A DNA stretch of 64,000 nt, taken from Lentisphaerae bacterium GWF2_57_35. Its GTDB lineage: Bacteria > Verrucomicrobiota > Kiritimatiellia > CAIQIC01 > GWF2-57-35. The position numbers were made by a program, and so were the translations under genes. The notes beneath the pieces were generated by a model. The model saw nothing but the letters and a program-made list of their open reading frames with translations, was not told the DNA's origin and ran no database searches. The stretch lies in the NCBI GenBank assembly GCA_001804865.1, contig MHBK01000048.1, positions 4,843 to 68,842 of the forward strand. The letters run 5' to 3'. Shown one piece after another: positions 7,078-26,594 of the stretch (the stretch's first letter is position 1; each line of letters begins with the position of its first letter).

Positions 7078-7081
7078 GGCT

Positions 7082-10696: not shown

Positions 10697-11596
10697 ATGT
10701 CTGTAACCGTTGTGCCGTATAGTGGCTGGGAACGAAATCTGCGATTGGCAAACGATCAGGTCGAACTGATTGTCACGTTGGAGGTCGGGCCGCGCATCGT
10801 TCGGTATGGTTTTATCGGCGAAAAAAACGTTTTTGGCGAGTTTGCCGGGCAATTGGGGCAAAAAGGCGAATCGAAATGGCAAATTCGGGGCGGGCATCGT
10901 TTCTGGATCGCGCCGGAACAAAAACCCCTGACGTACGAACTGGACAATGGGCCGGTCGAATTTGAAGAGATCGAAGGCGGCGTGCGTTTGATCCAGCCCC
11001 AGGGGCCGTTAAGCGGCATTCAGAAGACGATGGACATCCGTCTGCTGGATGCCAATGGACGTGTTTCGGTTCGGCACTCTTTGACCAATCGAACAGACAA
11101 GGCCATCGCCTGTTCTCCTTGGGCTTTGAGCGTGATGGCTAAAAAGGGTCTCGCGATTATCCCGCTGCCGGATGTGGTTCCTCATGACGAGCGCTTGACG
11201 CCGAATCAGAACTGGACGCTTTGGAGTTACACCGACCTGGCCGATCAGCGATATCAGATTGGGTCGTCTCTCATACTGATCCGGCAGGACCCTGCGCGGG
11301 GGCCCACCAAAATCGGATTGGCCCAGCGCGAAGGTTGGATTGGCTATCTTGCGGACGGCTATCTGTTCGTTAAACATTTCCAACGGTTGGAAAACGCCTC
11401 GTATCCCGACTGCAATGTCAATTGCGAGATCTACACGGACGAAGATATTCTCGAGTTGGAAACGTTGGGCCCCCTGACGTCGCTGGAACCGGGGCAGTCG
11501 GTTCAGCACGAGGAGCAATGGGCTTTGTTCAAGGATGTGCCGGATTGCACGTGCGAAGAGGAAGTGAATGCGGACGTGCTGCCGTATGTGATGTAG
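10697..11596 (+). CDS. Hypothetical protein, possibly DUF4380 / aldose-epimerase-like beta-sandwich
   Basis: Strong SD (AAAGGAGG) 7 nt upstream of the ATG. 'GGHRFWIAPE' and the overall beta-rich pattern resemble DUF4380 / mutarotase-like proteins. It sits first in the plus-strand EPS gene row. Confidence 0.4.
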   Translation: MSVTVVPYSGWERNLRLANDQVELIVTLEVGPRIVRYGFIGEKNVFGEFAGQLGQKGESKWQIRGGHRFWIAPEQKPLTYELDNGPVEFEEIEGGVRLIQPQGPLSGIQKTMDIRLLDANGRVSVRHSLTNRTDKAIACSPWALSVMAKKGLAIIPLPDVVPHDERLTPNQNWTLWSYTDLADQRYQIGSSLILIRQDPARGPTKIGLAQREGWIGYLADGYLFVKHFQRLENASYPDCNVNCEIYTDEDILELETLGPLTSLEPGQSVQHEEQWALFKDVPDCTCEEEVNADVLPYVM

Positions 11597-11677: not shown

Positions 11678-14119
11678 ATGAAACGGTTGTACGCAAATCT
11701 TTTGCAGCCGGTGTGGATGAGTTGTCTGCTGCTCGGTTGCTTGCCTGTCTCTGTCCTTGCTCAAGAAACGCTCTACGATTATGAAACGCCGGAGCCGGCT
11801 CAAGCTCGATGTGCGGCTCCTGTCTTTACGAATGCCATTACACTTTCTACCGGCGTACAAGCCGAGGCCAAGGACCTTGCGCGGGCGAGGGGATTGATCC
11901 AAAGCGACGAGCTCGCGGAGGGCTGCGCGCTGCTGGAAAAGATCGTCGAGGTTCAGCCGACTTATATTCCGGCCTGGAGGCTGCTGGGCGAAACGTACTG
12001 GCAAAATGGGCGGCAGGAGGATGCGATCCGCCTGTGGGAATTGTTGCGTCCGATCGTTCCTTCAGAGTTGTTCGTGCACAATTCTTTGGGCGATGCCCAC
12101 CGTTCGAGAAACGAGTTGGAGCCGGCGATCGAGGCCTATCGCCGTAGTTTGCAGGTCGATGCCGACCAGCCCGAAATCGTGTTCCAATTGGGCCGCGTAC
12201 TGCGATGGGCGGGGCATTTGGAGGAGGCGATTGCGGTCTTGCAGCCGCTGTGCCAAACCCATCCGGAGCGCATCGATATCAAAGCCGAACTGGCGCGCTC
12301 CTACTTGACAAGCCGTCAGTACGACCGAGCCCTGCCGCTCTGGAACGAATTGGTTGAAGCGGCTCCGGCCCATGCCGAATACGAGACGTATCGCACGTTG
12401 GCCTTGTTTTACGCGGGGCATCGCGAGGAGGCCATTGGTCATGCCCAAGCCTTGATCAGAGATCATCCCGCCAACAGCCGGCTCTTATCGTTATTGGCGG
12501 ATGCGGCCGAGTACAGCGGCGACTTGTTCAGTGCGGCGACGTTTCTGGAGCAAATCTACAGTGCTTCGGGGCAGGACATGAAGAGCCGTCGCCGCATTCT
12601 GAATCGATTGATTCCGTTGTATGACCGTGGTTACGGCCAACAGGCGGAGCGGTTTCCCCTGGACCGGCTGTGCGAGCTCGTTCGCGGCTATATTCAAAGC
12701 GATCCGATGAATGCCGACATGTATCTGGCGTTGGGGGATCTGTTGGTTCTCGACAGCCGTTATGAAGAAGCGATTAGCGCGTATCGTCATGTGCTCGATG
12801 AATTGAACTCCTGCAATATACGCGCCCATCGCGGTCTGTTCGAACTGTTGTTGCGTCAGGGCGACTATGAGGGCGCCGAGCAGGAACTGTCTTCCATTCG
12901 TCGCTTTAATCCCCATGATCCCTATTTGTATTCCATCCAGGCCCGGTGGTATGCGGAGCAATCTCGCTATAAGGAGGCGTTCGAGGCGTTGGACAAGCTG
13001 GAGCAATCGGGCTGGAACGGCTCCCTGGCCGTCTTGCTTTATCACGGACTCAGCAGCAGCGACGATTCGGAAATACTGCCCGTGACGCAATTCCAGGAGC
13101 AACTGAGTTTATTGAAGGAGGCCGGTTTTCGATTTATCACGGCGGCGCAGATTCCCGGATATTTCGAGCAAGCCCGGCGCATGCGCGAGCTGTTCGGCGG
13201 GATGGGGGTCGAGCGGGTGGCCTGCGTTACGTTTGACGATGCCCGTCGCGATGCCATGCGCCTGGGTACGCCGGTGGCGGAAGAATTGGACCTTGTTTTC
13301 TCCATGCATGTGCCGGTGGGTTTTGTGGAGGAGCAGCACCCCTTTATCAGCACCTTGGATATGTTGAAGGAATTCGAGGCAACCGGACATTGGATCATGG
13401 GCAGCCACTTGGTGGACGCCCATAAAGGCTATCCGTTGGATGCCGAAGGACATCAGGGGTACCCGATGGCCAATCGCGTATGGATTGCCGAAGCGCACAA
13501 GACGGAGTCCGAAGCGCAATATGTTCAGCGCGTTGCCGCGGAATATGGCCAATCGCGGCGCTTCATGGATGCCTATCTCCATACGGCCCGCACGACGCCG
13601 TTTGTGGCGTATCCCTTCGGCGATATCGGCCAGCAAACCGTCTGCAACGAAATCGAGTCCGTGCCGATCAATTTGCGCGAATGCGGACGGCATTACCAAG
13701 TCGGCTTTATTCAGAGCCCATTCGGATACGCCGTGCAGGGCGACAACCCCTTGCTGTATCAACGCATCGAACCGCATCGGTGGGAAAACGGCAGCAATCT
13801 GGTCGTTCGCGTGCTGGAGAATCATCCGGTCTTGCTGGCCCGGCGCCTCCGCGCGGAATATGCGGCGCGCGCGGGCAAAAAGTATCTGGCGCGGGATAAT
13901 TTGGAAGCGCTTCAGAAGGATGGCTATCCGCCGTCTTCGCTGGAAAAAACGCGCCTCTACGTTGAGCGCATATTGGGACGAAGAATCTCGCTGCCGGAAC
14001 CGGCGGACGAAGATCCGGCGGACCCGCCCCAGCGGCCGACGGTTCCCGGGACCGAGGCCCCTCGTGAAGATCTTCAGCCTTCGCGACAGGAGCTTTTGCG
14101 GGAGAATCTCGGATTCTGA
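11678..14119 (+). CDS. Secreted (possibly lipo-) protein: N-terminal TPR array + C-terminal CE4 polysaccharide-deacetylase-like domain (PgaB-role candidate)
   Basis: Signal peptide 'MKRLYANLLQPVWMSCLLLGCLPVSVLAQE' with a possible lipobox LLGC. About 400 aa of TPR-like repeats ('AWRLLGETYWQNGRQEDAIRLWE', 'NSLGDAHRSRNELEPAIEAYRRSLQVD'). CE4 motif-1 'ACVTFDDARRD', then 'FSMHVPVG' and 'FVAYPFGDIG'. Paralogue of the next gene. Confidence 0.75.
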   Translation: MKRLYANLLQPVWMSCLLLGCLPVSVLAQETLYDYETPEPAQARCAAPVFTNAITLSTGVQAEAKDLARARGLIQSDELAEGCALLEKIVEVQPTYIPAWRLLGETYWQNGRQEDAIRLWELLRPIVPSELFVHNSLGDAHRSRNELEPAIEAYRRSLQVDADQPEIVFQLGRVLRWAGHLEEAIAVLQPLCQTHPERIDIKAELARSYLTSRQYDRALPLWNELVEAAPAHAEYETYRTLALFYAGHREEAIGHAQALIRDHPANSRLLSLLADAAEYSGDLFSAATFLEQIYSASGQDMKSRRRILNRLIPLYDRGYGQQAERFPLDRLCELVRGYIQSDPMNADMYLALGDLLVLDSRYEEAISAYRHVLDELNSCNIRAHRGLFELLLRQGDYEGAEQELSSIRRFNPHDPYLYSIQARWYAEQSRYKEAFEALDKLEQSGWNGSLAVLLYHGLSSSDDSEILPVTQFQEQLSLLKEAGFRFITAAQIPGYFEQARRMRELFGGMGVERVACVTFDDARRDAMRLGTPVAEELDLVFSMHVPVGFVEEQHPFISTLDMLKEFEATGHWIMGSHLVDAHKGYPLDAEGHQGYPMANRVWIAEAHKTESEAQYVQRVAAEYGQSRRFMDAYLHTARTTPFVAYPFGDIGQQTVCNEIESVPINLRECGRHYQVGFIQSPFGYAVQGDNPLLYQRIEPHRWENGSNLVVRVLENHPVLLARRLRAEYAARAGKKYLARDNLEALQKDGYPPSSLEKTRLYVERILGRRISLPEPADEDPADPPQRPTVPGTEAPREDLQPSRQELLRENLGF

Positions 14120-14197
14120 TTTAGAAAGACATTCAAATCGAATTGGCCTATACTGCACAAATTCACATTGTCGAAACAAGCTATGGGGAATAAACCA

Positions 14198-17100
14198 ATG
14201 GTCAAATGGATTGCCGCGTTTGTATTGCTCGTTGGGTTTGAAATGGTCCATGCCGATGAAGCTTTCGAATCTCCAGCGATGCCTGAGCCTTCCATCACTG
14301 CCGATCCGAATAACCCTGATGTAAAGCCAGAATCTCCGGTGAACGGCCTGTTCGAGGCGGCCAATCGGGATATGGCGGCGACCAACTGGCCGGCCGCGAT
14401 TACCAAGTTGGAACAAGTTATCGAACAGGACCCCAGTCTGCTCTCTGCTTGGGGCCAACTCGGCTGGTGCTATTGGAACAATGGCCGCCAGGACAAAGCG
14501 ATCGAGCTGTGGGAAACCCTTCGGCGCATCAATCCAAAATTGCCGATGGCCTACAATCTGCTGGGCATGGCGTATATGGCCAATGGGGAGCAGCCGAAAG
14601 CCATTGAGTTTTTTCGCAAGAGTCTGGAGTTAGATCCGGATCAAGAACCTGTCGAGTATTCGATCGCCCGCCTTTCGCGTTGGGAGGGGCGCTTCGAAGA
14701 CTCGATCAGCATTCTCCGACGTCAATTGGACAAGAACGAAGACCGGCTCGATATCCGGTTGGAACTCGCGCGCGCCTATCTGAACAACTGGCAATTCGAA
14801 GAGGCGCTTCCTCTTTGGGAAAAACTGGCGCAAAGCCAGCCGGACAACTTGGAATATCGTTTGTACTGTGCGGAGTGCCGACTGCGCACCGGCCAGGCCG
14901 ATGAGGCGTTGCCTGAGATCGAACAAATTTTAGCCGAAGATCCGAACCATACCAGCGCGTTGTTAATCATGGCCGATCGGGCCGAATACGGCGAACGTCC
15001 CGCCGATGCGATTCCCTATCTTCGCCGGTTGGTCGCGGAAACCACGGAACTGCAATTGCGCCAGAAATATCGAATGAGGTTGATCGACCTCTACGTCCGC
15101 CTCAATCGCGACAAGCCCTTGGAGTATCCCCTGAACGAAGCGATCGGCATTCTCAAGGATTACATCCGGGACGATCCCAATAATACGGATGCGCTGCTTT
15201 TGCTTGGCGAATTGCTTTCGATGGACAACCAATTCGCCGATGCCCAACAAAAATTCACGATCGTGCTGCGCGATTTCAACCCCAACAACATGAGGGCGCA
15301 ACGCGGCTTGTTCGAAGCGTATGCCGCCGAGAAGAACTTTGCGGAGGCCGACAAGCATCTGAAGCGCGTCGAGGCCTTCAATCCACAAGATCCGTATAAT
15401 CATTACCTGCGGGCTCGCTATGAAGCGGCGAGGGGACGTTTCGGACGGGCGTATCAGGAACTGGATAAATTGGAAGCGGCCGGCCAGCAGGGTTCCGTGC
15501 TCGTTCTGCTCTTTCATGGTTTGACCACGAGCGAGTGGACCGAAATCCCTTCCGTCAGGCTCTTCCGCGAGCAATTGATGGCCTTGCAAAAAGCCGGCTT
15601 CCGTTTTCTGACGCCCATGGATCTGCGCGATTATTTTTCTTCCCTGGAAAGAATTAACGACAGCCGTTCGGAGCGAACGCCCAATCGCGCCGTCATCATC
15701 ACCTTCGACGATGCGCGTCTGGATTCCTTCCGTTTGGCTACGCCGGTTTTCAAGGACTTGGGCATTCCTTTTTCGATGCATGTGCCGGTCGGCAACATCG
15801 AACGGAAAGATCCGTTTCTCGCGTCCTGGAAGCAATTGGCGGATTATCGGCAACAGGGTTGGGTGATGGGCAGCCATCTTTATGAGGCCAGCACGCCTGT
15901 GCCGGGCGAGCGGGGGATGATGGTCCGTCCCCTGACCAGCCTTATCCGCCTCAACCCGGCCAACCGCATGGAAACGCTGGACGAATTCAACCAACGCATC
16001 CATATGGAATACGACCTGAGCAGCCGGCTGATGCAATCCTATTTGGGCGAAAAGCCGTCCTTTGTGGCCTATCCCATGGGCGACATCGGGCAGGAGACCT
16101 ACAGCGACGTTCCGGAGGCCGTGACGGTCAATTTGCAGTCGGCATCCACGAATTACGCCGTCGGTTTCATTCAATCCGTTTTCGGGTATGCCGTCAACGG
16201 GGATAATCCTCTGCTGTATCAGCGGCATGAGTTGGGGCGGCATGTTTCGGCCAGCAACACCGTGAATGAAGTGCTCAGGATGCATCCGGTCTTTTTAGCG
16301 CGCCGCATGAGGGCCGAATTGGCGACGCTGGAAGGCAAGCAGTACAAAGCGCTGAAAATCCTGGAACGGCTGAAGGAAGACGGTTATCCGGAGCAGTCCT
16401 ACAACGACCTCAATACCTATGTGCATACGAAGCTGTCCCACAAATTCGTTCCTCCGCCGTCGGTTGACAACGTGAGCAAAGGGCCTTTCAATTTGGATAT
16501 TAAGAAGCCGTATGTGGGGGCGAGGGCTCATTATTTCCAAGACAATTTGGAGCGCAAAAATTATCACATGTATGCGTTCGGAGGGCTTAATCTCACGCCC
16601 AATATCGTTGCCGAAGGCCAGGCCGGATGGGGTCAGCTTAAACAAGGCCGGCAAGACTTGGATGACGGCAGTTCGCTGCCGGAAATCGAGGTTGACGAGA
16701 CCTCGGCCGGGGTTAAAGGATCCTTCACATTTCCCAGCGGAAATTTGCTCTCCGGCGATTTCATGTTGCGCAATTTCGGCGAGCCCGTGAACGAAGTCGA
16801 GCCGACCTATGGGATCGAGGGTCAGTTCAAACCGGTCTTGCCGCTCGATCTGACCGGACGCTTCGAGCACGATGTGGAGCCGTCTGCGCGCACCGTCGTG
16901 CGCGACATGGTTACTTACGATCAGTGGATGGCGAACGGGGTTTTCAGCATTCGGGATTGGTGGGATGTGTGGGGCAGCGGACAATACTACCTCTATTCCG
17001 ACGATAACAATCGTTTGCATGGAGCCGTGAGCAGCCAATGGTTGATTTGGGAAGACATCGGCTTGCGCCTCGGCTTGCGTTATGCCTATACCACCTCGGA

Positions 17101-17521
17101 AGAAGCCCGCGACGATTATTGGACGCCTTACCAGTTGAATCGATTTTATCTGGAAGCATCGCTCCGTCATACCTACCAGCGAACCTATTATAACTTGCAG
17201 GCGCGGACCGGACTGGGCAAACAGAATGTCCGCCCGGATGCCGACGAAAAACACCAGGCCCGTCTGGTTCAGTTAAACCAGGATATCGCAACGGCCCGAC
17301 AGCAGCGCTGGCCGCAAAGCGACATCGATGCGCTGATTCAGGAACGCGACCAACTGATCGTCAATCCGCCGGAAGAAGAATGGAAACCCGTTTTCGGCTT
17401 GGCCGCTTCCGTCCGCAGCAAGCTGGGCGAACACTGGGAATTGCACGGCGAAGTCTCCGTCAACAAAGTGCCGGAGTATTACGAAGCCACGGTGGCGGGC
17501 GATATTACCTTCCGATTTTAA
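14198..17521 (+). CDS. Secreted TPR array + CE4 deacetylase-like domain + C-terminal outer-membrane beta-barrel (PgaA/PgaB-like roles fused)
   Basis: Signal peptide 'MVKWIAAFVLLVGFEMVHADE'; alternative starts at 14168 and 14183. TPRs ('AWGQLGWCYWNNGRQDKAIELWE'). CE4 module 'AVIITFDDARLDSFRLATPVFKDLGIPFSMHVPVG' and 'FVAYPMGDIG'. The last ~330 aa have alternating hydrophobic/aromatic strands ('HMYAFGGLNLTP', 'GVKGSFTFPSGN', 'LRLGLRYAYTT') and end in 'DITFRF', a typical OMP C-terminal aromatic signature. Confidence 0.7.
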   Translation: MVKWIAAFVLLVGFEMVHADEAFESPAMPEPSITADPNNPDVKPESPVNGLFEAANRDMAATNWPAAITKLEQVIEQDPSLLSAWGQLGWCYWNNGRQDKAIELWETLRRINPKLPMAYNLLGMAYMANGEQPKAIEFFRKSLELDPDQEPVEYSIARLSRWEGRFEDSISILRRQLDKNEDRLDIRLELARAYLNNWQFEEALPLWEKLAQSQPDNLEYRLYCAECRLRTGQADEALPEIEQILAEDPNHTSALLIMADRAEYGERPADAIPYLRRLVAETTELQLRQKYRMRLIDLYVRLNRDKPLEYPLNEAIGILKDYIRDDPNNTDALLLLGELLSMDNQFADAQQKFTIVLRDFNPNNMRAQRGLFEAYAAEKNFAEADKHLKRVEAFNPQDPYNHYLRARYEAARGRFGRAYQELDKLEAAGQQGSVLVLLFHGLTTSEWTEIPSVRLFREQLMALQKAGFRFLTPMDLRDYFSSLERINDSRSERTPNRAVIITFDDARLDSFRLATPVFKDLGIPFSMHVPVGNIERKDPFLASWKQLADYRQQGWVMGSHLYEASTPVPGERGMMVRPLTSLIRLNPANRMETLDEFNQRIHMEYDLSSRLMQSYLGEKPSFVAYPMGDIGQETYSDVPEAVTVNLQSASTNYAVGFIQSVFGYAVNGDNPLLYQRHELGRHVSASNTVNEVLRMHPVFLARRMRAELATLEGKQYKALKILERLKEDGYPEQSYNDLNTYVHTKLSHKFVPPPSVDNVSKGPFNLDIKKPYVGARAHYFQDNLERKNYHMYAFGGLNLTPNIVAEGQAGWGQLKQGRQDLDDGSSLPEIEVDETSAGVKGSFTFPSGNLLSGDFMLRNFGEPVNEVEPTYGIEGQFKPVLPLDLTGRFEHDVEPSARTVVRDMVTYDQWMANGVFSIRDWWDVWGSGQYYLYSDDNNRLHGAVSSQWLIWEDIGLRLGLRYAYTTSEEARDDYWTPYQLNRFYLEASLRHTYQRTYYNLQARTGLGKQNVRPDADEKHQARLVQLNQDIATARQQRWPQSDIDALIQERDQLIVNPPEEEWKPVFGLAASVRSKLGEHWELHGEVSVNKVPEYYEATVAGDITFRF

Positions 17522-17779: not shown

Positions 17780-20700
17780 TTATTTCTTGCTGTCTACCGT
17801 TGAGGCTTCCATTCCCGTCCAGAGCGGAATGCCCGGCAATGCATCGGGCATGGCTACGACAACCGGTTTTGTTGGCGAAAGCGTGCTTAAAGGCTTGTGC
17901 GAACCATTGGGCTCTTCCCACGAAACAGCTTGCACATCCCGGACTTCGGAGGCCCCATTGAAAATGGCTGCGCCTTCTCCTGCGCCGCGCCACTGGCAGG
18001 CTCCGGCAACCGGATCGAGCGCGAGCACCAACACCTTCAACGAGGAGCCCGCCAGTTCGCGATCCAACTTTTCGAACCAGGCGGCTTCAGGCAATCGGTC
18101 CAGCAGCAGGGTAAATCCGGAAAAGCCGTGTTTATCGGCGGCCGCCAGCAGCTCGCTGCCCGAGATCTGATGAGCGGAAGAGGCCTGAACCGCCGGCATC
18201 AGCCGCAAACGATAATATCGGGCGAAGAGCCGCAACAGCATCTCGTTTTCGCCCGCTGACTTTGACCAGGTTCCGTTTTCCTCGATCCGAAACCAAAGAG
18301 GCGCAAGGTCGGAGATGTAATTGCACTCGGGCTGCAGTTTTTCGATCAGGACATCCACATCGTTGGTGGCTTTCAGCGCCGGCAGCAGCACCAAGCGAGG
18401 CATCAGCGGGCCGGCGGCTATACGGCTGATGGCGGCCTGCGCGGTCCCTCGTTCGTTCCGATAAACACTCAATCCCACCCATCCCAAGCCCAGATGGGGC
18501 GGTACTTCCAGGGGAGATGAGAAAACGGGCGAGCTGTCAATCAGCCCGATCACGCCGTCGCCGCGCAAGGCGAGGCGCAGGTTTGCGCCGTCCGCGGGGA
18601 GCGTCCAGAATTTGGATTGCGATGCCACCAAGTGTCCGTGATTCCAGACTTGCAGGAAGAGCTGGTGCGTGTCGTCCAGTCCGAACCGGATAAAGTGATC
18701 CGACGTTCGCCGCACATAAAGCCAGAAGGAACCGGAAACTTTTTTCACGACCGCCTCGATGAACGAGTCGGTGATATGCTCCGATCCCAGCAGCCGCAAG
18801 GCCGCCTCGGAATGGGAGGAATCCGCACTCAGAACGCCTCCCTGGGTGGAGTGCCTCGAGAACGAACCTCCATCGAGCCACCAGGCTTCCGACAGATGTC
18901 CGTCGGCGCAGGATTCCTGTAAAGGCGCATACCGGGGTTTTAAGCGAAGAAACAAGGCGGTGACGCGATCGTCGCCTTTTTGTTCGGAGACGGTATTGAT
19001 GAGCCGGATCAGCGGATAGGTTTGGGCCACGCTCAACAAATCGTATTTCCAAATGGCTTGCCCTAATTCGTAGCGTTTATCGGCTTTCTGGCCCAGTTTC
19101 ACCAACGTATCCAGGCGCGCAGTAAATTCCGCCGGCTCCAAAGGCAACCGCAAGGCGATGGCATTGGCCTCGATGTGTTCAGGCTCCAACGTCAGGATTC
19201 GCTCGACCAGCCGGATCGCTTCCGGGTTCCGGTTTTGCCGCCACAACCATTCTGCCTGGGCCAAAAGAATGGATACGTCGTCCGGGAATAGACGGGCATA
19301 CATATTCAAGCTGCTGACGGCTTCGTTGATTCGTCCCATTTTTGTCAGCAAATTGACCCGTCGAATGACGAGCGAAATCTGGCCGGGATCCTGTTCCAGG
19401 CTTCGATCGTAAAACAGAATGGCCTGTTCGGAATCGCCTTTGCGGAGGTAGGCGTCGCCGATCAGCATGGGCGGGCGCGGATTCATGGCATCCAGTTTGA
19501 ACCATTCCGACCAGGCTTCGACGGCTTTGTCGTATTCCGCATCCAGGTAGGCCGCCTGGCCCTCCTGTTGCAGCCGGCTTAAACTGGCTTCCAACGTTTC
19601 TTCCATGTTGGTCCCGGCGGTCATCGGGATTTCGAACGACAAGGGCAACCCTTCATCCGGCGCCGGGCTGGGAATCGTTTCCACTTTGGTGGTCGATTCC
19701 TTGGTATAAGGATCTCGTTTGATGGGCGAGTTGGTGGAGACCGCCAGTTGAAGCCCGGGCGCCACCGCGAGAATGGATCGCAAGGACATGCTGGACTCGA
19801 TCGCTGTTGGCAATCGCACCAGCATGGAAAGTCCTTTGCGTTGAAGCGTCTTGGCGCATTGCATCAGCCAGGTGGTGATTCCAGCCGGGGAGGGGTTGTT
19901 CATATCCCCGAAATCCATGAAGATGCCGTCGCATTGATCCGCCGCGGCATCGTCGGCCAGCTTGGACGGCGTCAAGCGGCTTAACGCCTGCTCGTTTTCC
20001 ACCCGTACGCAGGGCATCAGTTTTAGATGATAAATGCGGGAAAGCGTTTTGAAGGTCGTCGCGTCCCATCCGGTTTTCAAGGCTTGTCCTACGCCGGATA
20101 CGGTCATCCACTTGGGACTCAAGCCGGTTAATCGGTAGGCATTCCGGTGCAGCCACTGCAAAACGTAGGGCTCCCGGGCGCGATCGATGTCCCAGGCGGC
20201 CAAGGTGCGTTGTTCCGAGTTCAGCACCACGCTGGAGATGCTCACTCGCGCCTGGCCCTTGACCGGGTCCCATACGCTGATCCCCAACATGCCGGGCCGG
20301 GCTTCGCCCCGCAATAGAATGTGATCCTTGAAGATCTGACGTCCGTCCAGCATGGCAAACAACATGCGGTCTCGGACGAATATCTCCAGGATGTGATCGT
20401 CGCGCGAATCGAGCCCCAAGCGGGCCGAGGCCAGCGTAAAACGTTCCGCGCTGACGCTCTTTTGCCGGAGCCAGACATTCAGGTCGTTGCTCAGCTCGTC
20501 GTCCGACCAATTATCCATCTCCTGGCCCATCTTCTTTTCGCGCAGCCAGACTTCGCCCCGCGTATCCATGCCCAGATAAACATACGACTCTTCATCGGCG
20601 GCCGCCCGCAGATAGACGCCCATCTGGCCCCGTTCCAATTTGAAAAGGACGCGCGTATAGAAATCGCGGCTTAAATCGCTTCCGCCCAGCCATATTTTGG

Positions 20701-21808
20701 CGCCGGTAAGTTCTTCGGGAGCATACAGGGTCAGCCGATTGTCTTCCTGCTTCATCGCGCCCCAATCCACAATCCAGGCCGACGGCATGGTCACGGTGTC
20801 CTTCTCCAGTTGAGCTTCCTCCAATGGCCAAGAACGATCCAGATAGCGGATCAAATCGGAGGCGCTCCAACTCGAACGCACCCGCAACCGGTTCAATCTT
20901 CGCGGGTCGCTGTAACGGGTGTTCAGCGCCAGATTCCCGGAAAGAAAACCCAGGTCGTAATTTTTTCCGACCAACGCCAGATTGATGCTCCGGGGGACGA
21001 CGGCCCGCGGCTGGAATTGTCCGAAATCCCCATAGGGATATGCGAAAGCCATCGGTTTGAGGCTGACTTCTTCCTCGATATCGGTCAGGCATTTTTCGTG
21101 ATCGGCGATCAGGCGTTTCTGGAATTCTTCCACGGTTTCGTAACGGAGGTCCTTGTCCAACCAGCGTGGACTGGTCATGAAATGGCCCATGCGCCCGCCG
21201 GGGCTGGCCTTGATTTTTTCAAACCCGCCGTAACTTTGGGCGCCGATCTCCCACAACTTGGATCGCGCCATGATTTGAACATAGGGCCAGAGCAAGCTGG
21301 CGGGATCTTTTTCCACGATCGATTCCGTCCATAGAAACATGACCGCCGTCCAGCCCATCCGGCGCAGGATGGGATTGACGCTGTAGTAGGACGTTTTCCG
21401 GGCGTGATCGAAGGTGAGCAGCACGGCCTTGGGGGGAAGCTTCCGGCCTTCCTTAAACAGGCGCCGCACGTCGTCCAGACGAATTGGATTATACCCATGC
21501 GCTTTCAAGACCTCGAGGTGCTCGTTAAACTGAGCCGGAGAAATCTCGTTGGTTTTCGAAGAAACGCCTTCGTACGCCAGCGTCACAAACGATTCGGCCT
21601 CGCGCGGGCCGCTATAGGTCGCCGGAGGCCACAGCCAGCGGCTGACCACAATTTTCACCGGGAACCACCAGGCCACCAACAATCCAATCACCATGATGTA
21701 ATGGAGCCAAACCGAGCCATAGGAAACGGAAACCGGCTGGACGGGACGGGAAGAATGAGGCTGCATTTCGGAAGGACGCCCGTCCGGATCGTGAACTTGT
21801 TGTGTCAT
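17780..21808 (-). CDS. 1342-aa membrane-anchored periplasmic multidomain protein: CE4-like domain (variant motif) + [lectin-like + alpha/beta module] + TPR + second [lectin-like + alpha/beta module]
   Basis: Start at ATG 21808 overlaps the synthase stop (ATGA). N-terminal TM segment 'VWLHYIMVIGLLVAWWFPVKIVV'. CE4-like 'AVLLTFDHARKTSYYSVNPILRRMGW', 'FAYPYGDFGQ'. TPRs 'AYLDAEYDKAVEAWSEWFKLD...GDAYLRKGDSEQAILFYDRSLEQDP'. Internal duplication is visible ('RIYHLKLMPCVRV...CDGIFMDFG...GLSMLVRLP' versus 'RYYRLRLMPAVQA...FSGFTLLLD...SLKVLVLALDP'). The track's 1468-aa version extends 378 nt into the synthase gene. Confidence 0.7.
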   Translation of the reverse strand: MTQQVHDPDGRPSEMQPHSSRPVQPVSVSYGSVWLHYIMVIGLLVAWWFPVKIVVSRWLWPPATYSGPREAESFVTLAYEGVSSKTNEISPAQFNEHLEVLKAHGYNPIRLDDVRRLFKEGRKLPPKAVLLTFDHARKTSYYSVNPILRRMGWTAVMFLWTESIVEKDPASLLWPYVQIMARSKLWEIGAQSYGGFEKIKASPGGRMGHFMTSPRWLDKDLRYETVEEFQKRLIADHEKCLTDIEEEVSLKPMAFAYPYGDFGQFQPRAVVPRSINLALVGKNYDLGFLSGNLALNTRYSDPRRLNRLRVRSSWSASDLIRYLDRSWPLEEAQLEKDTVTMPSAWIVDWGAMKQEDNRLTLYAPEELTGAKIWLGGSDLSRDFYTRVLFKLERGQMGVYLRAAADEESYVYLGMDTRGEVWLREKKMGQEMDNWSDDELSNDLNVWLRQKSVSAERFTLASARLGLDSRDDHILEIFVRDRMLFAMLDGRQIFKDHILLRGEARPGMLGISVWDPVKGQARVSISSVVLNSEQRTLAAWDIDRAREPYVLQWLHRNAYRLTGLSPKWMTVSGVGQALKTGWDATTFKTLSRIYHLKLMPCVRVENEQALSRLTPSKLADDAAADQCDGIFMDFGDMNNPSPAGITTWLMQCAKTLQRKGLSMLVRLPTAIESSMSLRSILAVAPGLQLAVSTNSPIKRDPYTKESTTKVETIPSPAPDEGLPLSFEIPMTAGTNMEETLEASLSRLQQEGQAAYLDAEYDKAVEAWSEWFKLDAMNPRPPMLIGDAYLRKGDSEQAILFYDRSLEQDPGQISLVIRRVNLLTKMGRINEAVSSLNMYARLFPDDVSILLAQAEWLWRQNRNPEAIRLVERILTLEPEHIEANAIALRLPLEPAEFTARLDTLVKLGQKADKRYELGQAIWKYDLLSVAQTYPLIRLINTVSEQKGDDRVTALFLRLKPRYAPLQESCADGHLSEAWWLDGGSFSRHSTQGGVLSADSSHSEAALRLLGSEHITDSFIEAVVKKVSGSFWLYVRRTSDHFIRFGLDDTHQLFLQVWNHGHLVASQSKFWTLPADGANLRLALRGDGVIGLIDSSPVFSSPLEVPPHLGLGWVGLSVYRNERGTAQAAISRIAAGPLMPRLVLLPALKATNDVDVLIEKLQPECNYISDLAPLWFRIEENGTWSKSAGENEMLLRLFARYYRLRLMPAVQASSAHQISGSELLAAADKHGFSGFTLLLDRLPEAAWFEKLDRELAGSSLKVLVLALDPVAGACQWRGAGEGAAIFNGASEVRDVQAVSWEEPNGSHKPLSTLSPTKPVVVAMPDALPGIPLWTGMEASTVDSKK

Positions 21809-23325
21809 CGTGTACCCCACGTGGTTTTGCGCATGGTGGCCAGGGCGTAATAGCCCTGCCAACTGAAAAACAGGACGTATGTAATCGTAAAAACGAACCC
21901 TGCCCACCAATGCGGGCGCCCCGTTTTCTCCAGATAAAACAGCGACCACAAGAGCGTGACGACCAGCACGCCGCCAACATAAAAGCTCGGGAAGTAGTGC
22001 TCCATAATGGGGCCCCAGACCAAGGCTCGCAACATGACCAGCGGCGCCAGCATCGGCAACACCGTCATGGCATACCAGGAGACCGCCGCCACCGGATGCT
22101 TGCACCACATGAACCGCCCGGCATACAGCATCTCCCGAACCCACGAGCGTTTCCACCGGCATTGCTGCCGGATGTATTTGCCCCATTTTTCGGGCACGAT
22201 GGTGGTCGCCAGGGCTTCGTCGTCATAGAGGACCCGATAATCGCGGAGCAGGTAGTTGGTCAAACTCCGGTCGTCGCCGAACGTGGCGTAATGGCCGAGG
22301 AATTTCTGGTAAAGCCATCGATCCAGGACATTCAGCACGCAGACCTTGCGATAGGCGGAAAAACAACCCGGGCAGCAACTGACCGCGCCAAAAAGACTTT
22401 CGGCGGCTTTCAATACGCGATACGAAACGAAATAGCGGACATCCTGCATTTTCGTCAACGCATTGGTTCCGACATTCTCGACATCCGTATGTCCCGCGAC
22501 GGCCGCCACGGTTGGATCGACCAGCCCCTGGACGACTTTCCGGATGGCGCCGGGCATGAGGAAGCTGTCGGAATCCACATACACAAGCATTTCGCCTTTG
22601 GCCAGCAAAGCGCCGATGGCCATGCCATGACGCTTCCCTTTGTTTTTTTCGAAATCGACGACGACCAGCGACGGATGCCGATCCAATGCTTTCATCATTT
22701 CGTCCAGCGTGCGGTCGGTCGACCCGTCGTTTACCGCCACCACTTCCAGCTTCGAATGAGGATAGCCTTCCTGGTAAATGCGCCCGATGGTTTTGCCGAT
22801 GGAGTCGTCTTCGTTGCGGCAGGCTACCACCACGGTCACCGTCGGCTCGAATCCGACATCCCGGGGCGCCAGATAAAATGCCGCCAGAATGAACCGGGAT
22901 AAAATAAACACGCCCACGCTCAGGCTGTAGAGATTAATCCACGGCTGATACCAGTAATAATCCAGGTTGTGCAGCTTGAAGTAGATGGCCAGGGTAATCA
23001 GCAGGACGAGCAATGCGTTGAAGCCTAATACCAGGCCTCCATGCATCTTGTTGTATTTCTCCGAGGCTCTGCCCGCATCCGTTTCGTCGCCGGCTTCCGG
23101 CGTGGGCAGCCGGGACTCCAAGACGGTTCGTTCCATCGTATTGCTGCAGAAGGGGCAGACCGAGGATGTCAGGGAGGACATGACATGGATGCTCATCTCG
23201 CAGTTCGGACAACGATGGCTTGATCCTTTCGCCGGCTGGCGTCTTGCACCCATCGGATCTGAAACAACGCTTTCCGCAGCGCCAAGCCATGTATTGAGCC
23301 CGGCGGCCTGGTCCGAAACTGCCAT
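21805..23325 (-). CDS. Processive family-2 glycosyltransferase (hyaluronan/chitin/NodC/PgaC-like synthase) with an N-terminal zinc-ribbon
   Basis: AGGAGG lies 8 nt upstream of ATG 23325. Zinc-ribbon 'CPNCEMSIHVMSSLTSSVCPFCSNTM'. TM segments flank a GT2 core with 'VVACRNEDDSI', 'AVNDGSTDRT', 'VYVDSDS', 'GDDRSLTNYLL' and the processive-synthase motif 'QQCRWKRSW' (Q(Q/R)xRW). Several C-terminal TM helices. Confidence 0.8.
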   Translation of the reverse strand: MAVSDQAAGLNTWLGAAESVVSDPMGARRQPAKGSSHRCPNCEMSIHVMSSLTSSVCPFCSNTMERTVLESRLPTPEAGDETDAGRASEKYNKMHGGLVLGFNALLVLLITLAIYFKLHNLDYYWYQPWINLYSLSVGVFILSRFILAAFYLAPRDVGFEPTVTVVVACRNEDDSIGKTIGRIYQEGYPHSKLEVVAVNDGSTDRTLDEMMKALDRHPSLVVVDFEKNKGKRHGMAIGALLAKGEMLVYVDSDSFLMPGAIRKVVQGLVDPTVAAVAGHTDVENVGTNALTKMQDVRYFVSYRVLKAAESLFGAVSCCPGCFSAYRKVCVLNVLDRWLYQKFLGHYATFGDDRSLTNYLLRDYRVLYDDEALATTIVPEKWGKYIRQQCRWKRSWVREMLYAGRFMWCKHPVAAVSWYAMTVLPMLAPLVMLRALVWGPIMEHYFPSFYVGGVLVVTLLWSLFYLEKTGRPHWWAGFVFTITYVLFFSWQGYYALATMRKTTWGTR

Positions 23326-23532
23326 TACACAACCTCCTTTGACCTGTATCCAACCGACAAATTCAAGAGATTCAAGTACTGACGCGTCCCTGATACCCTG
23401 CACTTTAGAAAAACGACTCTTGATTAAAAATCCATTCTTATGTACTTATACGATCAATATAGTCTCGTTGGCAATATAGATCGTTGTTTCTATTCCCAAT
23501 GTCAAAGAGTGTTTGAGAGGAGAGGTCGAAGA
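23326..23532. promoter_or_regulatory. Divergent control region between the synthase operon and the receiver/ATPase operon
   Basis: A 207-bp AT-rich gap between divergent starts. It contains the direct repeat CAATATAG at 23455-23462 and 23472-23479 (17-bp register), and -35-like TTGATT (23421) and TTGGCA (23468). I could not align any canonical -10 convincingly. Confidence 0.35.
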
Positions 23533-23928
23533 ATGACCGGTTTCTTAATTATCGAAGACGAGGCCCCCATCCAAGTTATTCTCAAACGATTGATAGGCAA
23601 CATGGGTTACGATGTAACCATCGCCAATGACGGTGAAGCCGGATATCGCCTGGTTCAAGAAAACGACTTCGATGTTATTCTCACCGATCTGATTATGCCG
23701 GGGCGTCTGCAAGGATTTGAACTGCTGCGCAAAATTCGGGAAGCGAAGCCTGAGTCCTCGGTCATCGTCGTGTCAGGTCATCCCTCCAGCGAAACCTTGG
23801 CCGAATGCCAAAAACTGGGGATACAGGATTTCTTGAGCAAACCGTTTGAAATGTCCTTTGTCAGAGTGGTTGTTCAAAAGCTCCTCAACCGAAGAGCAAG
23901 TTCGGCCAGGACTGAATCGAAGCTATGA
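23533..23928 (+). CDS. Single-domain response regulator (CheY-like receiver)
   Basis: 'FLIIEDE' acidic pocket, phospho-acceptor 'FDVILTDLIMPG', 'VIVVSGH' and 'FLSKPF'. No output domain. Start at ATG 23533 is preceded by GGAGAG. Confidence 0.85.
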   Translation: MTGFLIIEDEAPIQVILKRLIGNMGYDVTIANDGEAGYRLVQENDFDVILTDLIMPGRLQGFELLRKIREAKPESSVIVVSGHPSSETLAECQKLGIQDFLSKPFEMSFVRVVVQKLLNRRASSARTESKL

Positions 23929-24845
23929 TTACCAGAACGCCATTGGGAGTGTCCTTTTTCGATCGGCTTTATGGAGGCATTTATCGCGGCCGCTCCTGTC
24001 TGGTGACCGGCCGATCGGGTTCGGGCAAGACCGCCGTCAGCCTGCATTTTCTTTCGCACGGGTTGATGTTGCAGGAACGCTGCCTGATGCTTTGCGCCAA
24101 ACCCGCCCAGGATATCGCCATTCATGCCAGCTCCTTGGGCCTGCCGGTTCAATCGGCTGTGGAGTCGGGCAATTTGATCTTGTTGGAATACAGCGACTTT
24201 GTGCCCGGCCGCGATCGGGAAGAAACGCTTATCCTGCCCCCCGACGCTTTTCTGCAGCTTAAAGAAATCATCGAAGCCCAAGCGATTCAACGGCTCATCA
24301 TCGATACCGTCTTGCCCTGGATCACCCTGCCGGATCGGGAAAAAGTGGCGGAACACGTCTTTTCGTTTGTCCGGGCCATCGATCGGTTGGGCGTATCGAC
24401 GCTGTTCACCATGCTCAAGCCGGTTTCCGTGCCCGCCTTTCAATTGCGGCAATTGATGGAGAACCTTGTGCCGATTTCCATCAGCTTGGTCTACACTCCG
24501 GAAAACGAGTCGCGCGAATGGGTGACCAATAAATACATGGGCATGAACATCCAGGCCCAGACCGTCAAATACAATATATCTCAAGGACAAGGCCTCTACG
24601 AAATTTCCGGCGCCGATGCGCCGGAGGCTTCGGTGTCCGCCTTCTCCTCTTACTCCGCGGCGCCGGACGTACAGCCGAATGCCGCTTCCGATCGTACCCC
24701 GCCGATGCAAAAAGGCTTTGCCGATTTTGTCCTCGATAAAACCGCCTATCGCGCCGCGCCTCTGCGCACTCATTCTGTTGCGTCTGTTCGTCCGTCATCG
24801 GACAAGCCGGGAGGATCGCCATCTGTTTTCGGATCGCCCAAGTAG
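23925..24845 (+). CDS. KaiC/RecA-superfamily ATPase-like protein with a Pro/Ser/Ala-rich tail
   Basis: ATGA overlap with the receiver gene. 'FDRLYGGIYRGRSCLVTGRSGSGKTAVSLHFLSHG' (Walker A in the KaiC/RadA-like context), 'QRLIIDTV' (Walker B-like). The last ~90 aa are low complexity ('SAFSSYSAAPDVQPNAASDRTPP...SSDKPGGSPSVFGSPK'). Confidence 0.65.
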   Translation: MITRTPLGVSFFDRLYGGIYRGRSCLVTGRSGSGKTAVSLHFLSHGLMLQERCLMLCAKPAQDIAIHASSLGLPVQSAVESGNLILLEYSDFVPGRDREETLILPPDAFLQLKEIIEAQAIQRLIIDTVLPWITLPDREKVAEHVFSFVRAIDRLGVSTLFTMLKPVSVPAFQLRQLMENLVPISISLVYTPENESREWVTNKYMGMNIQAQTVKYNISQGQGLYEISGADAPEASVSAFSSYSAAPDVQPNAASDRTPPMQKGFADFVLDKTAYRAAPLRTHSVASVRPSSDKPGGSPSVFGSPK

Positions 24846-24870
24846 TAGTCGTCAAAGGAGTATGCATTAG

Positions 24871-25731
24871 ATGTACGTGTCGTATTGGAACTTGCGGGAA
24901 AGACCGTTTCAGAATGTGGCCAACACGCAATTTGCCTATTTATCCCCGCAGCATCGGGAAGGATTAGCTCGCCTGTTGTATATCGTGGAAGAACGGAAGC
25001 TCGGCGGGGTTCTGATCGGTCCCTATGGCGCCGGCAAAACCATGATATTGGAAATGCTCGCCGGCATCGTGAAAACCCGGCCCAACCTCACCTATATTCA
25101 AATCGATGCCCCTCCGTCCAATGCCCTGGCTTTGGCCCGGCAGTTGTTGGCGTGCCTGCAATACACGCAGCCGGTTAACGATATCGCACAAGCCCTTAAT
25201 GCCATTCAAGGCTATTTATCCTATGCCGGAACGGCCGTTCCTCATTTGGTGGTGGTCGTCGACGAAGCCCAGATGTTGCAGGACTCCGACGCTTTTGAGT
25301 TCCTTCATTTGTTGTGCAATATGAGAGTGCGGAATAAGGACGGCGGGGTGGGGGAAAATGGGATCACCCTCATTCTGGCGGGACATCAGGATCTGGTCAG
25401 CCGCTTGGCCGCCCGGGCCTCGCTGGCTCAACGATTGCAGTTCTTCTGGAAGCTGGATCCGCTGAACCAACAGCAAACCATGGAATATGTCCAACATCGC
25501 ATGCGCAGCGCCGGCGGAGATATCTGGGCCTTCGAAGAAGAAGCGTTGAAAGCCATCGTGACTTATACGCAAGGGCTGCCGCGCTTGATCAACAACCTCT
25601 GCGACGTGGCCTTGTTGCTCGGATGCGCCATGAACGGGTCCCGCATTACAGCCGATATTGTTCGGCAGGCCGCCCGCGATGTCCAAATTCCCACCCTAAC
25701 GGAAGCCAACACCATATCGGAGGCGTCATGA
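24871..25731 (+). CDS. ExeA/MshM-like AAA ATPase (AAA_22 type)
   Basis: AAAGGAG SD lies 10 nt upstream. 'FAYLSPQHREGLARLLY' (ExeA-like N-terminus), Walker A 'GPYGAGKTM', Walker B 'HLVVVVDEAQ', 'LILAGHQDL' and 'GLPRLINNLCD'. No peptidoglycan-binding or TM extension. Confidence 0.7.
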   Translation: MYVSYWNLRERPFQNVANTQFAYLSPQHREGLARLLYIVEERKLGGVLIGPYGAGKTMILEMLAGIVKTRPNLTYIQIDAPPSNALALARQLLACLQYTQPVNDIAQALNAIQGYLSYAGTAVPHLVVVVDEAQMLQDSDAFEFLHLLCNMRVRNKDGGVGENGITLILAGHQDLVSRLAARASLAQRLQFFWKLDPLNQQQTMEYVQHRMRSAGGDIWAFEEEALKAIVTYTQGLPRLINNLCDVALLLGCAMNGSRITADIVRQAARDVQIPTLTEANTISEAS

Positions 25732-26072
25732 ACTACGAAATCGATACCCCTCTGACCATGACGGGTTTGATTGCCACGATCGTCAGTCTGATCTTTGCCG
25801 GCGCCGCTTGGTACAATTCGTATCGCCGCCGCCATCATGCCCAGCCGGACGTTCCCAGAGGACCGGTCTCGCCGCCGCCTGCCGAAGTGGCGCGGCTGCA
25901 CAAAGAGCCGTCGATCCAACCGGCCAAACCAGCTTTTTCAGCTCCTGTCCCCAGCCCGTTCGAAGCGTCGGACGCGCTCCCTAATTCCTCCTCGCTTTTT
26001 AAAAAGTTGGGTGTTAATGGAATGGAAGAACCTTCACAAGTTGGTGAAGACAAGCAATACCGCTGGGAATAA
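25728..26072 (+). CDS. Small bitopic membrane protein with a proline-rich tail
   Basis: ATGA overlap with the AAA ATPase gene. One TM segment 'LTMTGLIATIVSLIFAGAAWY', then 'PDVPRGPVSPPPAEV...PAKPAFSAPVPSPF'. The position and shape recall the small partner (ExeB/GspB-type) of ExeA-like ATPases. Homology is not demonstrable by eye. Confidence 0.5.
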   Translation: MNYEIDTPLTMTGLIATIVSLIFAGAAWYNSYRRRHHAQPDVPRGPVSPPPAEVARLHKEPSIQPAKPAFSAPVPSPFEASDALPNSSSLFKKLGVNGMEEPSQVGEDKQYRWE

Positions 26073-26126
26073 TTCCCTCGTTTTGCGTGAGCACATCGAA
26101 GGACAGGCGCAGCAGGAAGGTGATTC

Positions 26127-26594
26127 ATGGCCATGGTATGGGTGGTTGACGACGACAACGAAGTTCGGGGCGTGGTCCAGACTTTGCTTGAAGGATTGGG
26201 GCATCAGGCCCGTTCCTTCGGAGACGCTCAAACCGCATTGCAGGAATACCGACCGGGCGCCGCCGAAGTCATCATCTCCGATGTGCGAATGCCGGCGATG
26301 GACGGCCTGGCCTTCACTCACGCCATCCTCGACCGCGACCCGGAAGCCAGCATCATCATTCTGACCGGCTATCCTTCGGTCAATACCGCCGTCGAAGCCA
26401 TGCAGGCGGGCGCCGTGGATTTCTTAGGCAAACCCTGCAACGTCGGCGAACTGCGCGTGCGGGTCGACCGGGCCCTGGACATCCGCGCCTGGCAGGTCCG
26501 CCTGCGTAAAAACCGCCTGTTGACGCTGGGCCTGATCCTCTCCCTGCCGCTCTGGATTATCCTCGGGATCGTATTGGTTTCATTCCTGCATTGA
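26127..26594 (+). CDS. Response-regulator receiver domain with a C-terminal transmembrane anchor
   Basis: 'VWVVDDD', phospho-acceptor 'VIISDVRMPAMDG', 'IIILTGY' and 'FLGKPC', then a TM segment 'LLTLGLILSLPLWIILGIVLVSFL'. AGGAAGG SD. Confidence 0.8.
   Translation: MAMVWVVDDDNEVRGVVQTLLEGLGHQARSFGDAQTALQEYRPGAAEVIISDVRMPAMDGLAFTHAILDRDPEASIIILTGYPSVNTAVEAMQAGAVDFLGKPCNVGELRVRVDRALDIRAWQVRLRKNRLLTLGLILSLPLWIILGIVLVSFLH

Follow-up and report, generated by a model that had tools for sequence, protein, structure and literature searches.

A giant membrane-anchored protein with degenerate CE4 and GH18-like domains as a candidate partner of a hyaluronan synthase-like glycosyltransferase in PVC bacteria

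We analyzed a 64,000-nucleotide stretch of DNA from Lentisphaerae bacterium GWF2_57_35 (contig MHBK01000048.1; hereafter the window, with coordinates counted from its first letter), and concentrated on a gene that encodes a protein of 1342 amino acids (aa) directly downstream of a processive glycosyltransferase of family GT2. We refer to its product as the partner protein. A previous reading of the same DNA, made from the letters alone, had described an inner-membrane-anchored giant with a variant CE4 motif and an internal module duplication around a block of tetratricopeptide repeats (TPRs); the strings that it quoted are all present in the translation, at aa 131, 383-514, 591-667, 1016-1119 and 1197-1266. 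The partner gene and its features are arranged as follows, with the basis of each assignment in brackets.

17780..21808, minus strand: synthase partner gene, 1342 aa and stop codon (translation, ATG start, orthologues)
21805..21808, minus strand: ATGA start/stop overlap of the partner gene with the upstream GT2 gene (read directly in the sequence)
21638..21718, minus strand: single N-terminal transmembrane anchor, aa ~31-57 (hydrophobicity)
20804..21607, minus strand: PgaB-type (circularly permuted NodB2) CE4 domain, aa ~68-335, with YEG/TFDH/AQSYGGF/AYPYG (profiles, PDB alignment, family counts)
20216..20785, minus strand: beta-sandwich 1, predicted CBM66/ConA-like, aa ~342-531 (AlphaFold2, Foldseek, weak PF06439)
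19664..20206, minus strand: predicted truncated GH18-like barrel 1, aa ~535-715, with Gly634 at the catalytic Glu position (AlphaFold2, Foldseek, profiles)
18929..19591, minus strand: TPR block, aa ~740-960 (Pfam, PDB profile search)
18419..18892, minus strand: beta-sandwich 2, duplicate of sandwich 1, aa ~973-1130 (hhalign E 8.8e-21)
17984..18406, minus strand: predicted GH18-like barrel 2, duplicate of barrel 1, aa ~1135-1275, with a fully degenerate catalytic strand (hhalign E 1.5e-16, column counts)

The partner gene and its CE4 domain

The ATG of the partner gene (21808-21806) overlaps the TGA of the GT2 gene (21807-21805). A longer open reading frame (ORF) of 1468 aa can be read from position 22186, but its extra part runs into the 3' end of the GT2 gene in a different frame. 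In the orthologue alignment the proteins begin at the Met of MTQQ, and Met1 shows a conservation of at least 90%; we therefore take 21808 as the real start. The protein carries a single hydrophobic segment, with one Kyte-Doolittle window above 1.5 in total (aa ~31-57), in line with the one N-terminal helix proposed earlier. The remainder would be periplasmic, judging from its domain content; Pfam leaves approximately 720 of its residues blank.

The region following the anchor is recognized as CE4 by Pfam (PF01522, E 9e-7, above the cut-off) and by the NCBIfam PgaB model TIGR03938 (aa 84-265, E 8.5e-33). Its best matches in the PDB are the solved PgaB structures 3vus/4f9d (E 3e-18 to about 1e-18), and it displays the permuted motif order of NodB2, as defined in PMC10967932. 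When the profile of the whole protein was compared with PDB sequences, TPR matches dominated and PgaB was the one useful match. The partner protein nevertheless falls outside the PgaB equivalogs: the TIGR03938 score is 113.5 bits versus an equivalog cut-off of 321.9, model positions 21-215 of 621 are covered, and the N-terminus is a transmembrane anchor without a lipobox.

Alignment to E. coli PgaB, for which the roles of Asp114, Asp115, His184 and His189 are given in PMC7112194, showed that the catalytic base is kept (Asp114, Asp134 in the partner protein) and that the three metal ligands are replaced: Asp115 by His135, His184 by Gln191 and His189 by Phe196. Motif MT1 thus reads TFDH and not TFDD (LTFDHARK at aa 131), and MT2, H(S/T)x3H, reads Q191-S-Y-G-G-F196, with neither metal His left. 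At the His position of MT5 the protein carries AYEG (Glu80), versus Y/F-H-G in the two CE4 paralogues of the window and in a relative from the Candidate Phyla Radiation (CPR). We take Glu80 to be the probable counterpart of PgaB His55, the catalytic acid.

The same picture emerged from 79 orthologues. Position 135 is occupied by H in 59, Q in 15, N in 2 and L, S or K in one each; position 191 by Q in 67 and E in 11; position 196 by F in 68 and Y in 4, followed by V, L, T and I; and position 80 by E in 58 of the 79. The base is D in 73 and E in 6, and Arg232, which aligns with the PgaB active-site Arg, is found in all 79. MT3 is kept as A256-Y-P-Y-G260, with P258 and G260 invariant, and Asp236 is near-invariant. 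Because Asp is found at position 135 in none of the 79, TFDH is a character of the family, and these counts rule out a sequencing error or a single outlier.

Replacement of the metal Asp, both metal His and the catalytic-acid His throughout the family indicates that the CE4 domain is most likely a pseudo-deacetylase with a maintained pocket. There are precedents for such a state, since PMC10967932 describes CE4 proteins without these residues as inert or probably inactive. Two CE4 pseudoenzymes, inert or probably inactive, are Ba0150 of B. anthracis (4M1B) and the CDA of E. cuniculi (2VYO); from the latter, according to the same paper, both metal His and further catalytic residues are missing. 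Both share the NodB fold with the partner protein; in contrast to it, they are single-domain proteins of NodB1 type unrelated to synthase-dependent secretion, whereas the partner domain is a NodB2 domain within a giant scaffold.

The duplicated sandwich-barrel module

Beyond the CE4 domain the protein consists of two copies of a two-part module separated by TPRs. The halves of the protein find each other by BLASTP (E 2e-8), and profile-profile comparison of module 1 with module 2, using hhalign on orthologue sub-alignments, gave E 2.3e-31 over 295 columns; the sandwiches alone matched with E 8.8e-21 and the alpha/beta parts alone with 1.5e-16. The internal duplication is therefore real, far beyond chance. 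TPR_16, TPR_14, TPR_2 and TPR_19 score above the Pfam cut-offs at aa 750-882, and strong TPR matches were also obtained in the PDB profile search.

Module 1 gave no significant match in a single-sequence phmmer search of the PDB, and its folds were addressed with AlphaFold2. The model of aa 335-725, computed with 36 orthologues, shows a beta-sandwich followed by a beta/alpha domain (pLDDT 85.7, pTM 0.81). More than 700 Foldseek matches reached E <1e-3, and the 50 listed are ConA-like lectins, GH16 enzymes, polysaccharide lyases and related beta-sandwiches; the best match in the PDB is CBM66 (4b1m; E 8.6e-12, TMt 0.81, root-mean-square deviation 2.8 A). The related Pfam family PF06439 weakly matches six of the 36 members. 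Sandwich 1 is thus predicted to adopt the beta-jelly-roll fold of the CBM66/ConA-like superfamily, and the abundance of invariant residues in it (Trp, Arg, Gln, Asp) hints at carbohydrate binding.

The modelled sandwich contains an acidic insertion, KKMGQEMDNWSDDELSNDLNV (window 20471-20548, minus strand; aa ~421-446), at which the pLDDT drops below 60. It is limited to the closer relatives, and distant orthologues are approximately 25 aa shorter at this point.

Since the two-domain model gave beta-sandwich matches only, among the 50 Foldseek matches listed, barrel 1 was modelled separately (aa 530-722; pLDDT 91.7, pTM 0.89). Its best Foldseek matches (E 1e-6) are the chitinase-like lectin SI-CLP, at the top, SleL and two bacterial GH18 chitinases. 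Hidden Markov model profiles of the barrel matched the sequences of the same GH18 proteins in a search of PDB sequences with hmmsearch (E 4e-5 to 3e-4), whereas the Pfam GH18 family PF00704 matched the barrel domain neither in the partner protein nor in the members scanned.

The beta4 strand of GH18 enzymes, G-I-N-L/V-D-F-E, aligns with G628-I-F-M-D-F-G634 of the partner protein, in which the motif D627-G-I-F-M-D632-F-G634 departs from DxxDxDxE. In module 1 of the orthologues, the catalytic Glu column contains S (33), T (10), E (9), G (8), A (7) and D (5), and the column of the preceding Asp contains N (49) and D (21); in module 2 the residues at both places are hydrophobic or random. Barrel 1 spans only ~185 aa, that is, about the first five beta/alpha units and a short closure, and can therefore be considered truncated, the second half of a GH18 barrel being missing. 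We thus regard both barrels as predicted non-catalytic, truncated GH18 derivatives, barrel 2 by its sequence profile. In SI-CLP/CHID1 (PDB 3bxw) and SleL/YaaH, the best fold and profile matches, the beta4 pattern DG-x-x-x-D/N-x is recognizable as it is here, with the Glu lost in the partner family. SI-CLP is itself not known to be catalytic. The partner domain differs from these proteins in its length of ~185 aa, in being present twice and in lying inside a membrane-anchored multidomain protein.

These results bear out most of what the sequence-only reading had proposed, including the CE4-like domain with His at the metal Asp, the duplicated module, TPRs between the repeats (aa ~750-880), a first part resembling lectins or jelly-rolls (CBM66, TM 0.81) and a second part in the form of a glycoside hydrolase-like TIM barrel, which fits the comparison with PgaB that it had drawn. 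It had further suggested that the alpha/beta modules bind or cleave a polymer. Of the two, binding is much likelier, because the CE4 domain has lost its other ligands and its acid and the catalytic Glu is missing from the truncated GH18-like barrels. The main correction is that these domains are very probably binders and not enzymes.

Synthase, neighbouring genes and relatives

The genes around the partner gene are the following.

21805..23403, minus strand: GT2 processive synthase, ORF of 532 aa, Cys4 ribbon, DSD/GDDR/QQCRW (Pfam, NCBIfam, PDB)
11678..14119, plus strand: TPR and CE4 protein, 813 aa, lipobox-like LLGC (Pfam, NCBIfam, motif table)
14168..17521, plus strand: TPR and CE4 protein with a C-terminal beta-barrel candidate, 1117 aa, ending in Phe (Pfam, motif table, synteny)
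23440..25731, plus strand: REC-only response regulator, KaiC-like ATPase and AAA_22 ATPase, divergent from GT2 (Pfam, synteny)

The synthase is matched by Pfam Glyco_tranf_2_3 and Chitin_synth_2 and by the NCBIfam models NodC (5.6e-49) and PgaC (1.4e-32). Its closest solved structures are hyaluronan synthases (HAS; E 6e-29, covering aa 241-532), and membrane segments flank the core. At its N-terminus lies a Cys4 zinc-ribbon-like motif, CPNC...CPFC (aa ~64-87; window 23140-23215, minus strand), with a weak Pfam zinc-ribbon match (E 0.018). The true start of the GT2 gene is uncertain and may lie downstream, since orthologue matches begin at approximately aa 22-60.

Both plus-strand TPR-CE4 genes are convergent with the minus-strand pair. 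The 813-aa lipoprotein carries intact CE4 motifs (YHG, TFDD, SH..AH), is the one CE4 protein of the window with a full triad, and is the probable active deacetylase of the locus. In the 1117-aa protein (CE4 at window 15470-16297, plus strand), FHG, TFDD and the first metal His are kept and Ser stands at the second metal His (SHLYEAS). It is probably a PgaA-like exporter with a porin domain; its C-terminal barrel region found no solved relative in the PDB sequence search. The TPR domain of PgaA reportedly binds poly-N-acetylglucosamine (PNAG) and modulates PgaB-dependent processing, a precedent for the mechanism proposed below. The REC/KaiC-like/AAA_22 genes may provide regulatory input to the synthase pair, since neither PilZ nor GGDEF was seen in the window GT2.

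The plus-strand cluster 23440-26594 also includes another REC protein, whose C-terminus forms a hydrophobic tail. On the other side, directly before the TPR-CE4 genes and on the same strand, lie a GH3-family PF03321 protein (8508-10211) and a DUF4380 protein (10697-11596). The GH3 family of PF03321 comprises plant-type acyl-acid amido synthetases, not glycosidases. Just upstream of the exopolysaccharide locus, the region 810-7810 (plus strand) holds four radical-SAM genes and resembles a modification or natural-product cassette, with three B12-binding/radical-SAM paralogues in tandem (1957-3306, 3303-4637 and 4562-5980) followed by a SAM methyltransferase (7058-7810).

Among 5.8 billion proteins searched, more than 120 were full-length relatives of the partner protein (~1280-1450 aa, 31-63% identity). 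Those with names are annotated as 'TPR repeat protein' or 'polysaccharide deacetylase family protein' and come from metagenome-assembled genomes (MAGs) of Kiritimatiellae, Lentisphaerae and Verrucomicrobia, within the Planctomycetes-Verrucomicrobia-Chlamydiae (PVC) group. The profile of the duplicated module detected 378 clusters (50% identity) at E <=1e-3, including 57 at E <=1e-30, among 1.8 billion representatives. Scanning one genome per species yielded 63 loci of the PVC type, one of them in the isolate Kiritimatiellaeota bacterium B1221.

A GT2 gene lies directly upstream of the partner gene in almost all of the ~60 PVC loci, and the pairing recurs in distant CPR, Chloroflexi and archaeal loci. 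The translational coupling noticed in the window is widespread: the GT2 stop and partner start overlap as ATGA in 35 of 52 related loci and by 1 nt in five more. The TPR-CE4 genes and the REC/KaiC-like/AAA_22 trio are syntenic in most PVC loci. A stand-alone GH18 gene was found neither in the window nor, in PVC loci, within 10 kb of the partner gene.

In two loci, L060 and L063, the order is reversed: the partner gene comes before the GT2 gene, and ATGA coupling is thus absent. L060 carries the label Candidatus Neomarinimicrobiota, a group outside PVC. Five MAGs contain two separate full-length loci each (L012+L030, L008+L049, L032+L038, L026+L042 and L013+L046), which suggests paralogous duplicate systems in one genome.

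Non-PVC relatives, in CPR/Patescibacteria, Anaerolineales, a Gammaproteobacteria MAG and Nanoarchaeota, have a shorter protein encoded right after a GT2 gene; this GT2 shares 30-47% identity with that of the window. A Thaumarchaeota contig fragment (L079, a 3.3-kb piece) gave a CE4-like match only, and no GT2 is present on it. The architectures that can be ordered between a PgaB-like protein and the partner protein are listed below; all are from sources outside the window.

P0191, 840 aa: transmembrane anchor-CE4 (TFDD, H..H)-sandwich-full GH18 with DFE, 5 nt after a chitin-synthase-like GT2
P0176, 675 aa: active-type CE4 and mini-barrel, on a short contig
P0167-type, ~600 aa: degenerate CE4 and one module, overlapping the GT2 stop
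P0179, 1492 aa: N-terminal part resembling the partner protein, in fusion with TPR-CE4-barrel (locus L082, 1485-8703)

P0191, from an uncharacterised metagenome contig, is the member in which Pfam detects both CE4 and GH18, and a Wildermuthbacteria (CPR) relative of 530 aa likewise combines the anchor, a CE4 domain with canonical TFDD and H..H, and the sandwich. Such proteins resemble the partner protein in domain order and in their position right after GT2, and are homologous to it over the CE4 domain and sandwich, and over the barrel where present. They differ in keeping TFDD and H..H (P0191 also DFE) and in having one module, no TPRs and a length of 530-840 aa. The P0167-type gene has two genes after it, one for a TPR-CE4 protein of 1199 aa and one for a GH18 protein whose DxDxE is intact. 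In P0179, on a metagenome contig, a degenerate CE4 domain, a sandwich and a partial barrel form one ORF with a TPR-CE4-barrel region; a chitin-synthase-like GT2 with a weak PilZ match precedes it and a GH18 gene with intact DxDxE follows. This fusion would represent a Rosetta-stone link between the partner protein and the TPR-CE4-barrel protein, with mis-assembly or a frameshift as the alternative.

In the Wildermuthbacteria locus L066 (7155-13214), judged by eye from translations, the pair formed by GT2 and the anchored CE4-sandwich protein is flanked by UDP-sugar-dehydrogenase-like and GlmS-like genes, which hint at an amino-sugar or uronic-acid polymer. An upstream secreted protein in the same locus may carry a similar beta-sandwich.

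A proposed role in polymer secretion

Well-understood synthase-dependent exopolysaccharide systems are those for cellulose, PNAG, alginate and Pel, all worked out in Proteobacteria. The partner protein shares with E. coli PgaB, the poly-beta-1,6-N-acetylglucosamine N-deacetylase/hydrolase (CE4 and GH153), a homologous deacetylase domain with permuted motif order, the pairing of CE4 with a TIM-barrel domain of glycoside hydrolase type, and a locus that also encodes a GT2 synthase and a TPR exporter. It departs from PgaB in the replaced metal triad and acid His, in the score far below the equivalog cut-off, in having a transmembrane anchor and not a lipobox, an inserted beta-sandwich and a truncated GH18-like barrel in place of GH153, in the duplicated module and TPR block, and in a synthase nearer to HAS/NodC than to PgaC.

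BcsB, the co-polymerase of cellulose synthase, offers a second comparison. It alternates jellyroll and alpha/beta domains and is thought to guide nascent cellulose, and synthase systems commonly have an inner-membrane co-polymerase (PMC8892547). Like BcsB, the partner protein is a large, probably periplasmic subunit encoded next to a processive GT2, with alternating jellyroll and alpha/beta domains (two of each) and a single anchor. Its anchor is N-terminal, whereas that of BcsB is C-terminal, its barrels derive from GH18 and are not flavodoxin-like, and it has CE4 and TPRs in addition. BcsB was absent from the phmmer and hmmsearch results against the PDB and from the 50 Foldseek matches listed, and we consider the likeness architectural only. 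The earlier suggestion that the protein may functionally replace BcsB- or PgaD-type subunits fits the architecture and synteny.

Taken together, we favour the reading, with a probability of about 0.55, that the partner protein is a non-catalytic, inner-membrane-anchored periplasmic partner of the HAS/NodC/chitin-synthase-like GT2 and binds nascent polymer containing N-acetylglucosamine (GlcNAc). The two proteins together would best be read as a synthase-dependent exopolysaccharide secretion system found mostly in PVC bacteria (Kiritimatiellota, Lentisphaerota, Verrucomicrobiota). A beta-linked polymer that contains GlcNAc, chitin/chitosan-like or hyaluronan-like, is suggested by the family of the GT2, by the PgaB type of the CE4 domains and by the association with GH18.

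The ancestor would have been a membrane-anchored CE4 deacetylase-sandwich-GH18 hydrolase, PgaB-like and tied to a GT2 of HAS/chitin-synthase type; the type is still found with intact motifs beside the same kind of GT2 in other lineages (P0191). In the PVC lineage the metal triad and the acid would have disappeared from the CE4 domain, the GH18 domain would have shrunk and lost the catalytic Glu, the sandwich-barrel unit would have been duplicated with a TPR block inserted between the copies, and deacetylation would have moved to TPR-CE4 partners in the outer membrane. Made in step with the synthase through the ATGA coupling, the partner protein may be positioned at its periplasmic exit, where five dead-enzyme or lectin domains would hold the emerging chain and leave it unmodified. 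Its TPRs could then dock on those of the 813-aa lipoprotein and the 1117-aa porin-like protein, and a path spanning the periplasm would result, with deacetylation and export at the outer-membrane partners. The partner protein would thereby occupy the functional place of BcsB, PgaD or Alg44 in other systems.

Several points weigh against this reading. HAS-like, chitin-like and PNAG-like products all fit the data, the topology of the partner protein and the barrel of the 1117-aa protein are both deduced indirectly, and BcsB is found neither by the sequence searches nor among the 50 Foldseek matches listed. The TMq values of barrel 1 reach only 0.53-0.64, with other TIM-barrel families close behind GH18 in Foldseek, and nine of the 79 orthologues have Glu at the acid position. 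Finally, the residues that replace the canonical ones in CE4 are conserved in turn (E, H/Q, Q, F), next to the near-invariant Asp134, Arg232, Asp236 and AYPYG, which leaves a small probability for a non-canonical catalytic site.

The last point leads to the first alternative, in which the CE4 domain is still an active de-N-acetylase with an unusual site (for example Glu80, His135, Gln191 and Asp134 as base), and acts as an inner-membrane equivalent of PgaB/IcaB that modifies the emerging polymer. Glu, His and Gln can ligate metals, the replacement residues are not random, and intact-motif relatives hold the same genomic position. We consider it unlikely, in that the family as a whole has substitutions at four of the five catalytic or metal positions, the Phe at one metal His cannot bind metal, CE4 proteins altered in this way are reported as inert or probably inactive (PMC10967932), and the same locus already encodes a CE4 with a complete triad.

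It is also improbable, in our estimate, that the dead CE4 and GH18-like domains bind peptidoglycan and so anchor or space the secretion apparatus in the cell wall. Peptidoglycan is itself a beta-1,4 GlcNAc-containing glycan on which CE4 enzymes commonly act (PMC10967932), and the closest GH18 relatives by profile and fold include the spore-cortex enzymes SleL/YaaH and YdhD. The tight and ancient pairing, however, is with a HAS/NodC-like synthase and not with cell-wall genes, the CE4 is of the PNAG-deacetylase (PgaB) type, and in simpler loci the synthase is accompanied by a GH18 gene of its own, which would suit a hydrolase specific for the polymer. That the barrels are active glycosidases, trimming or releasing the polymer like PgaB-GH153, BcsZ or PelA and so setting chain length or release, is very improbable: GH18 ancestry, the full GH18 domains or genes with intact DxDxE in related loci and the few orthologues with Glu favour it, but Gly634 here, Ser/Thr in most orthologues, the degenerate module 2 and the missing half of the barrel argue against it.

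We return to the binding partner of the synthase as the preferred reading. A more far-reaching form of it, which we put forward as tentative and rather less than an even bet, is an undescribed, PVC-centred class in which GT2 extrudes a GlcNAc-containing polymer, chitin/chitosan-like or glycosaminoglycan-like, onto a 1300-residue pseudoenzyme 'rail' made of a dead CE4 domain and two copies of a carbohydrate-binding module plus dead GH18. The rail would bridge the periplasm to the TPR-CE4 exporters, and would be a convergent, enzyme-derived counterpart of BcsB.

No description of this PVC family or system was found in the searchable open-access literature, and a 2020 operon survey of synthase-dependent systems leaves the PVC phyla unmentioned. 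The bacterial chitin synthases described as horizontally acquired (PMC5122149) belong to another set of genes, in DUF1501/DUF1800 operons of Gammaproteobacteria, and are distinct from this system. The locus would belong to a known kind, synthase-dependent exopolysaccharide systems with a PgaB-like accessory, and be set apart by its giant tandem-pseudoenzyme partner.

If the proposal holds, a periplasmic guide subunit would have been recruited from the polymer's own deacetylase and hydrolase, which were turned into binders and then duplicated, with intermediates persisting in other lineages. Bacterial HAS/chitin-synthase-like enzymes lack a known inner-membrane partner, for which the partner protein is a concrete candidate, the predicted folds account for the approximately 720 residues left blank by Pfam, and the modules, if confirmed as lectins, would be new domains binding GlcNAc polymers. 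Cultured Kiritimatiellia secrete glycosaminoglycan-like, N-sulfated exopolymers, in a report that does not discuss this locus (PMC7356697), and the system could be a route to the glucosamine-rich or N-sulfated exopolymers described for such isolates. More broadly, these genes could be among those behind the exopolymers that are abundant in Kiritimatiellota and Lentisphaerota, both of them specialists in polysaccharides and of ecological importance.

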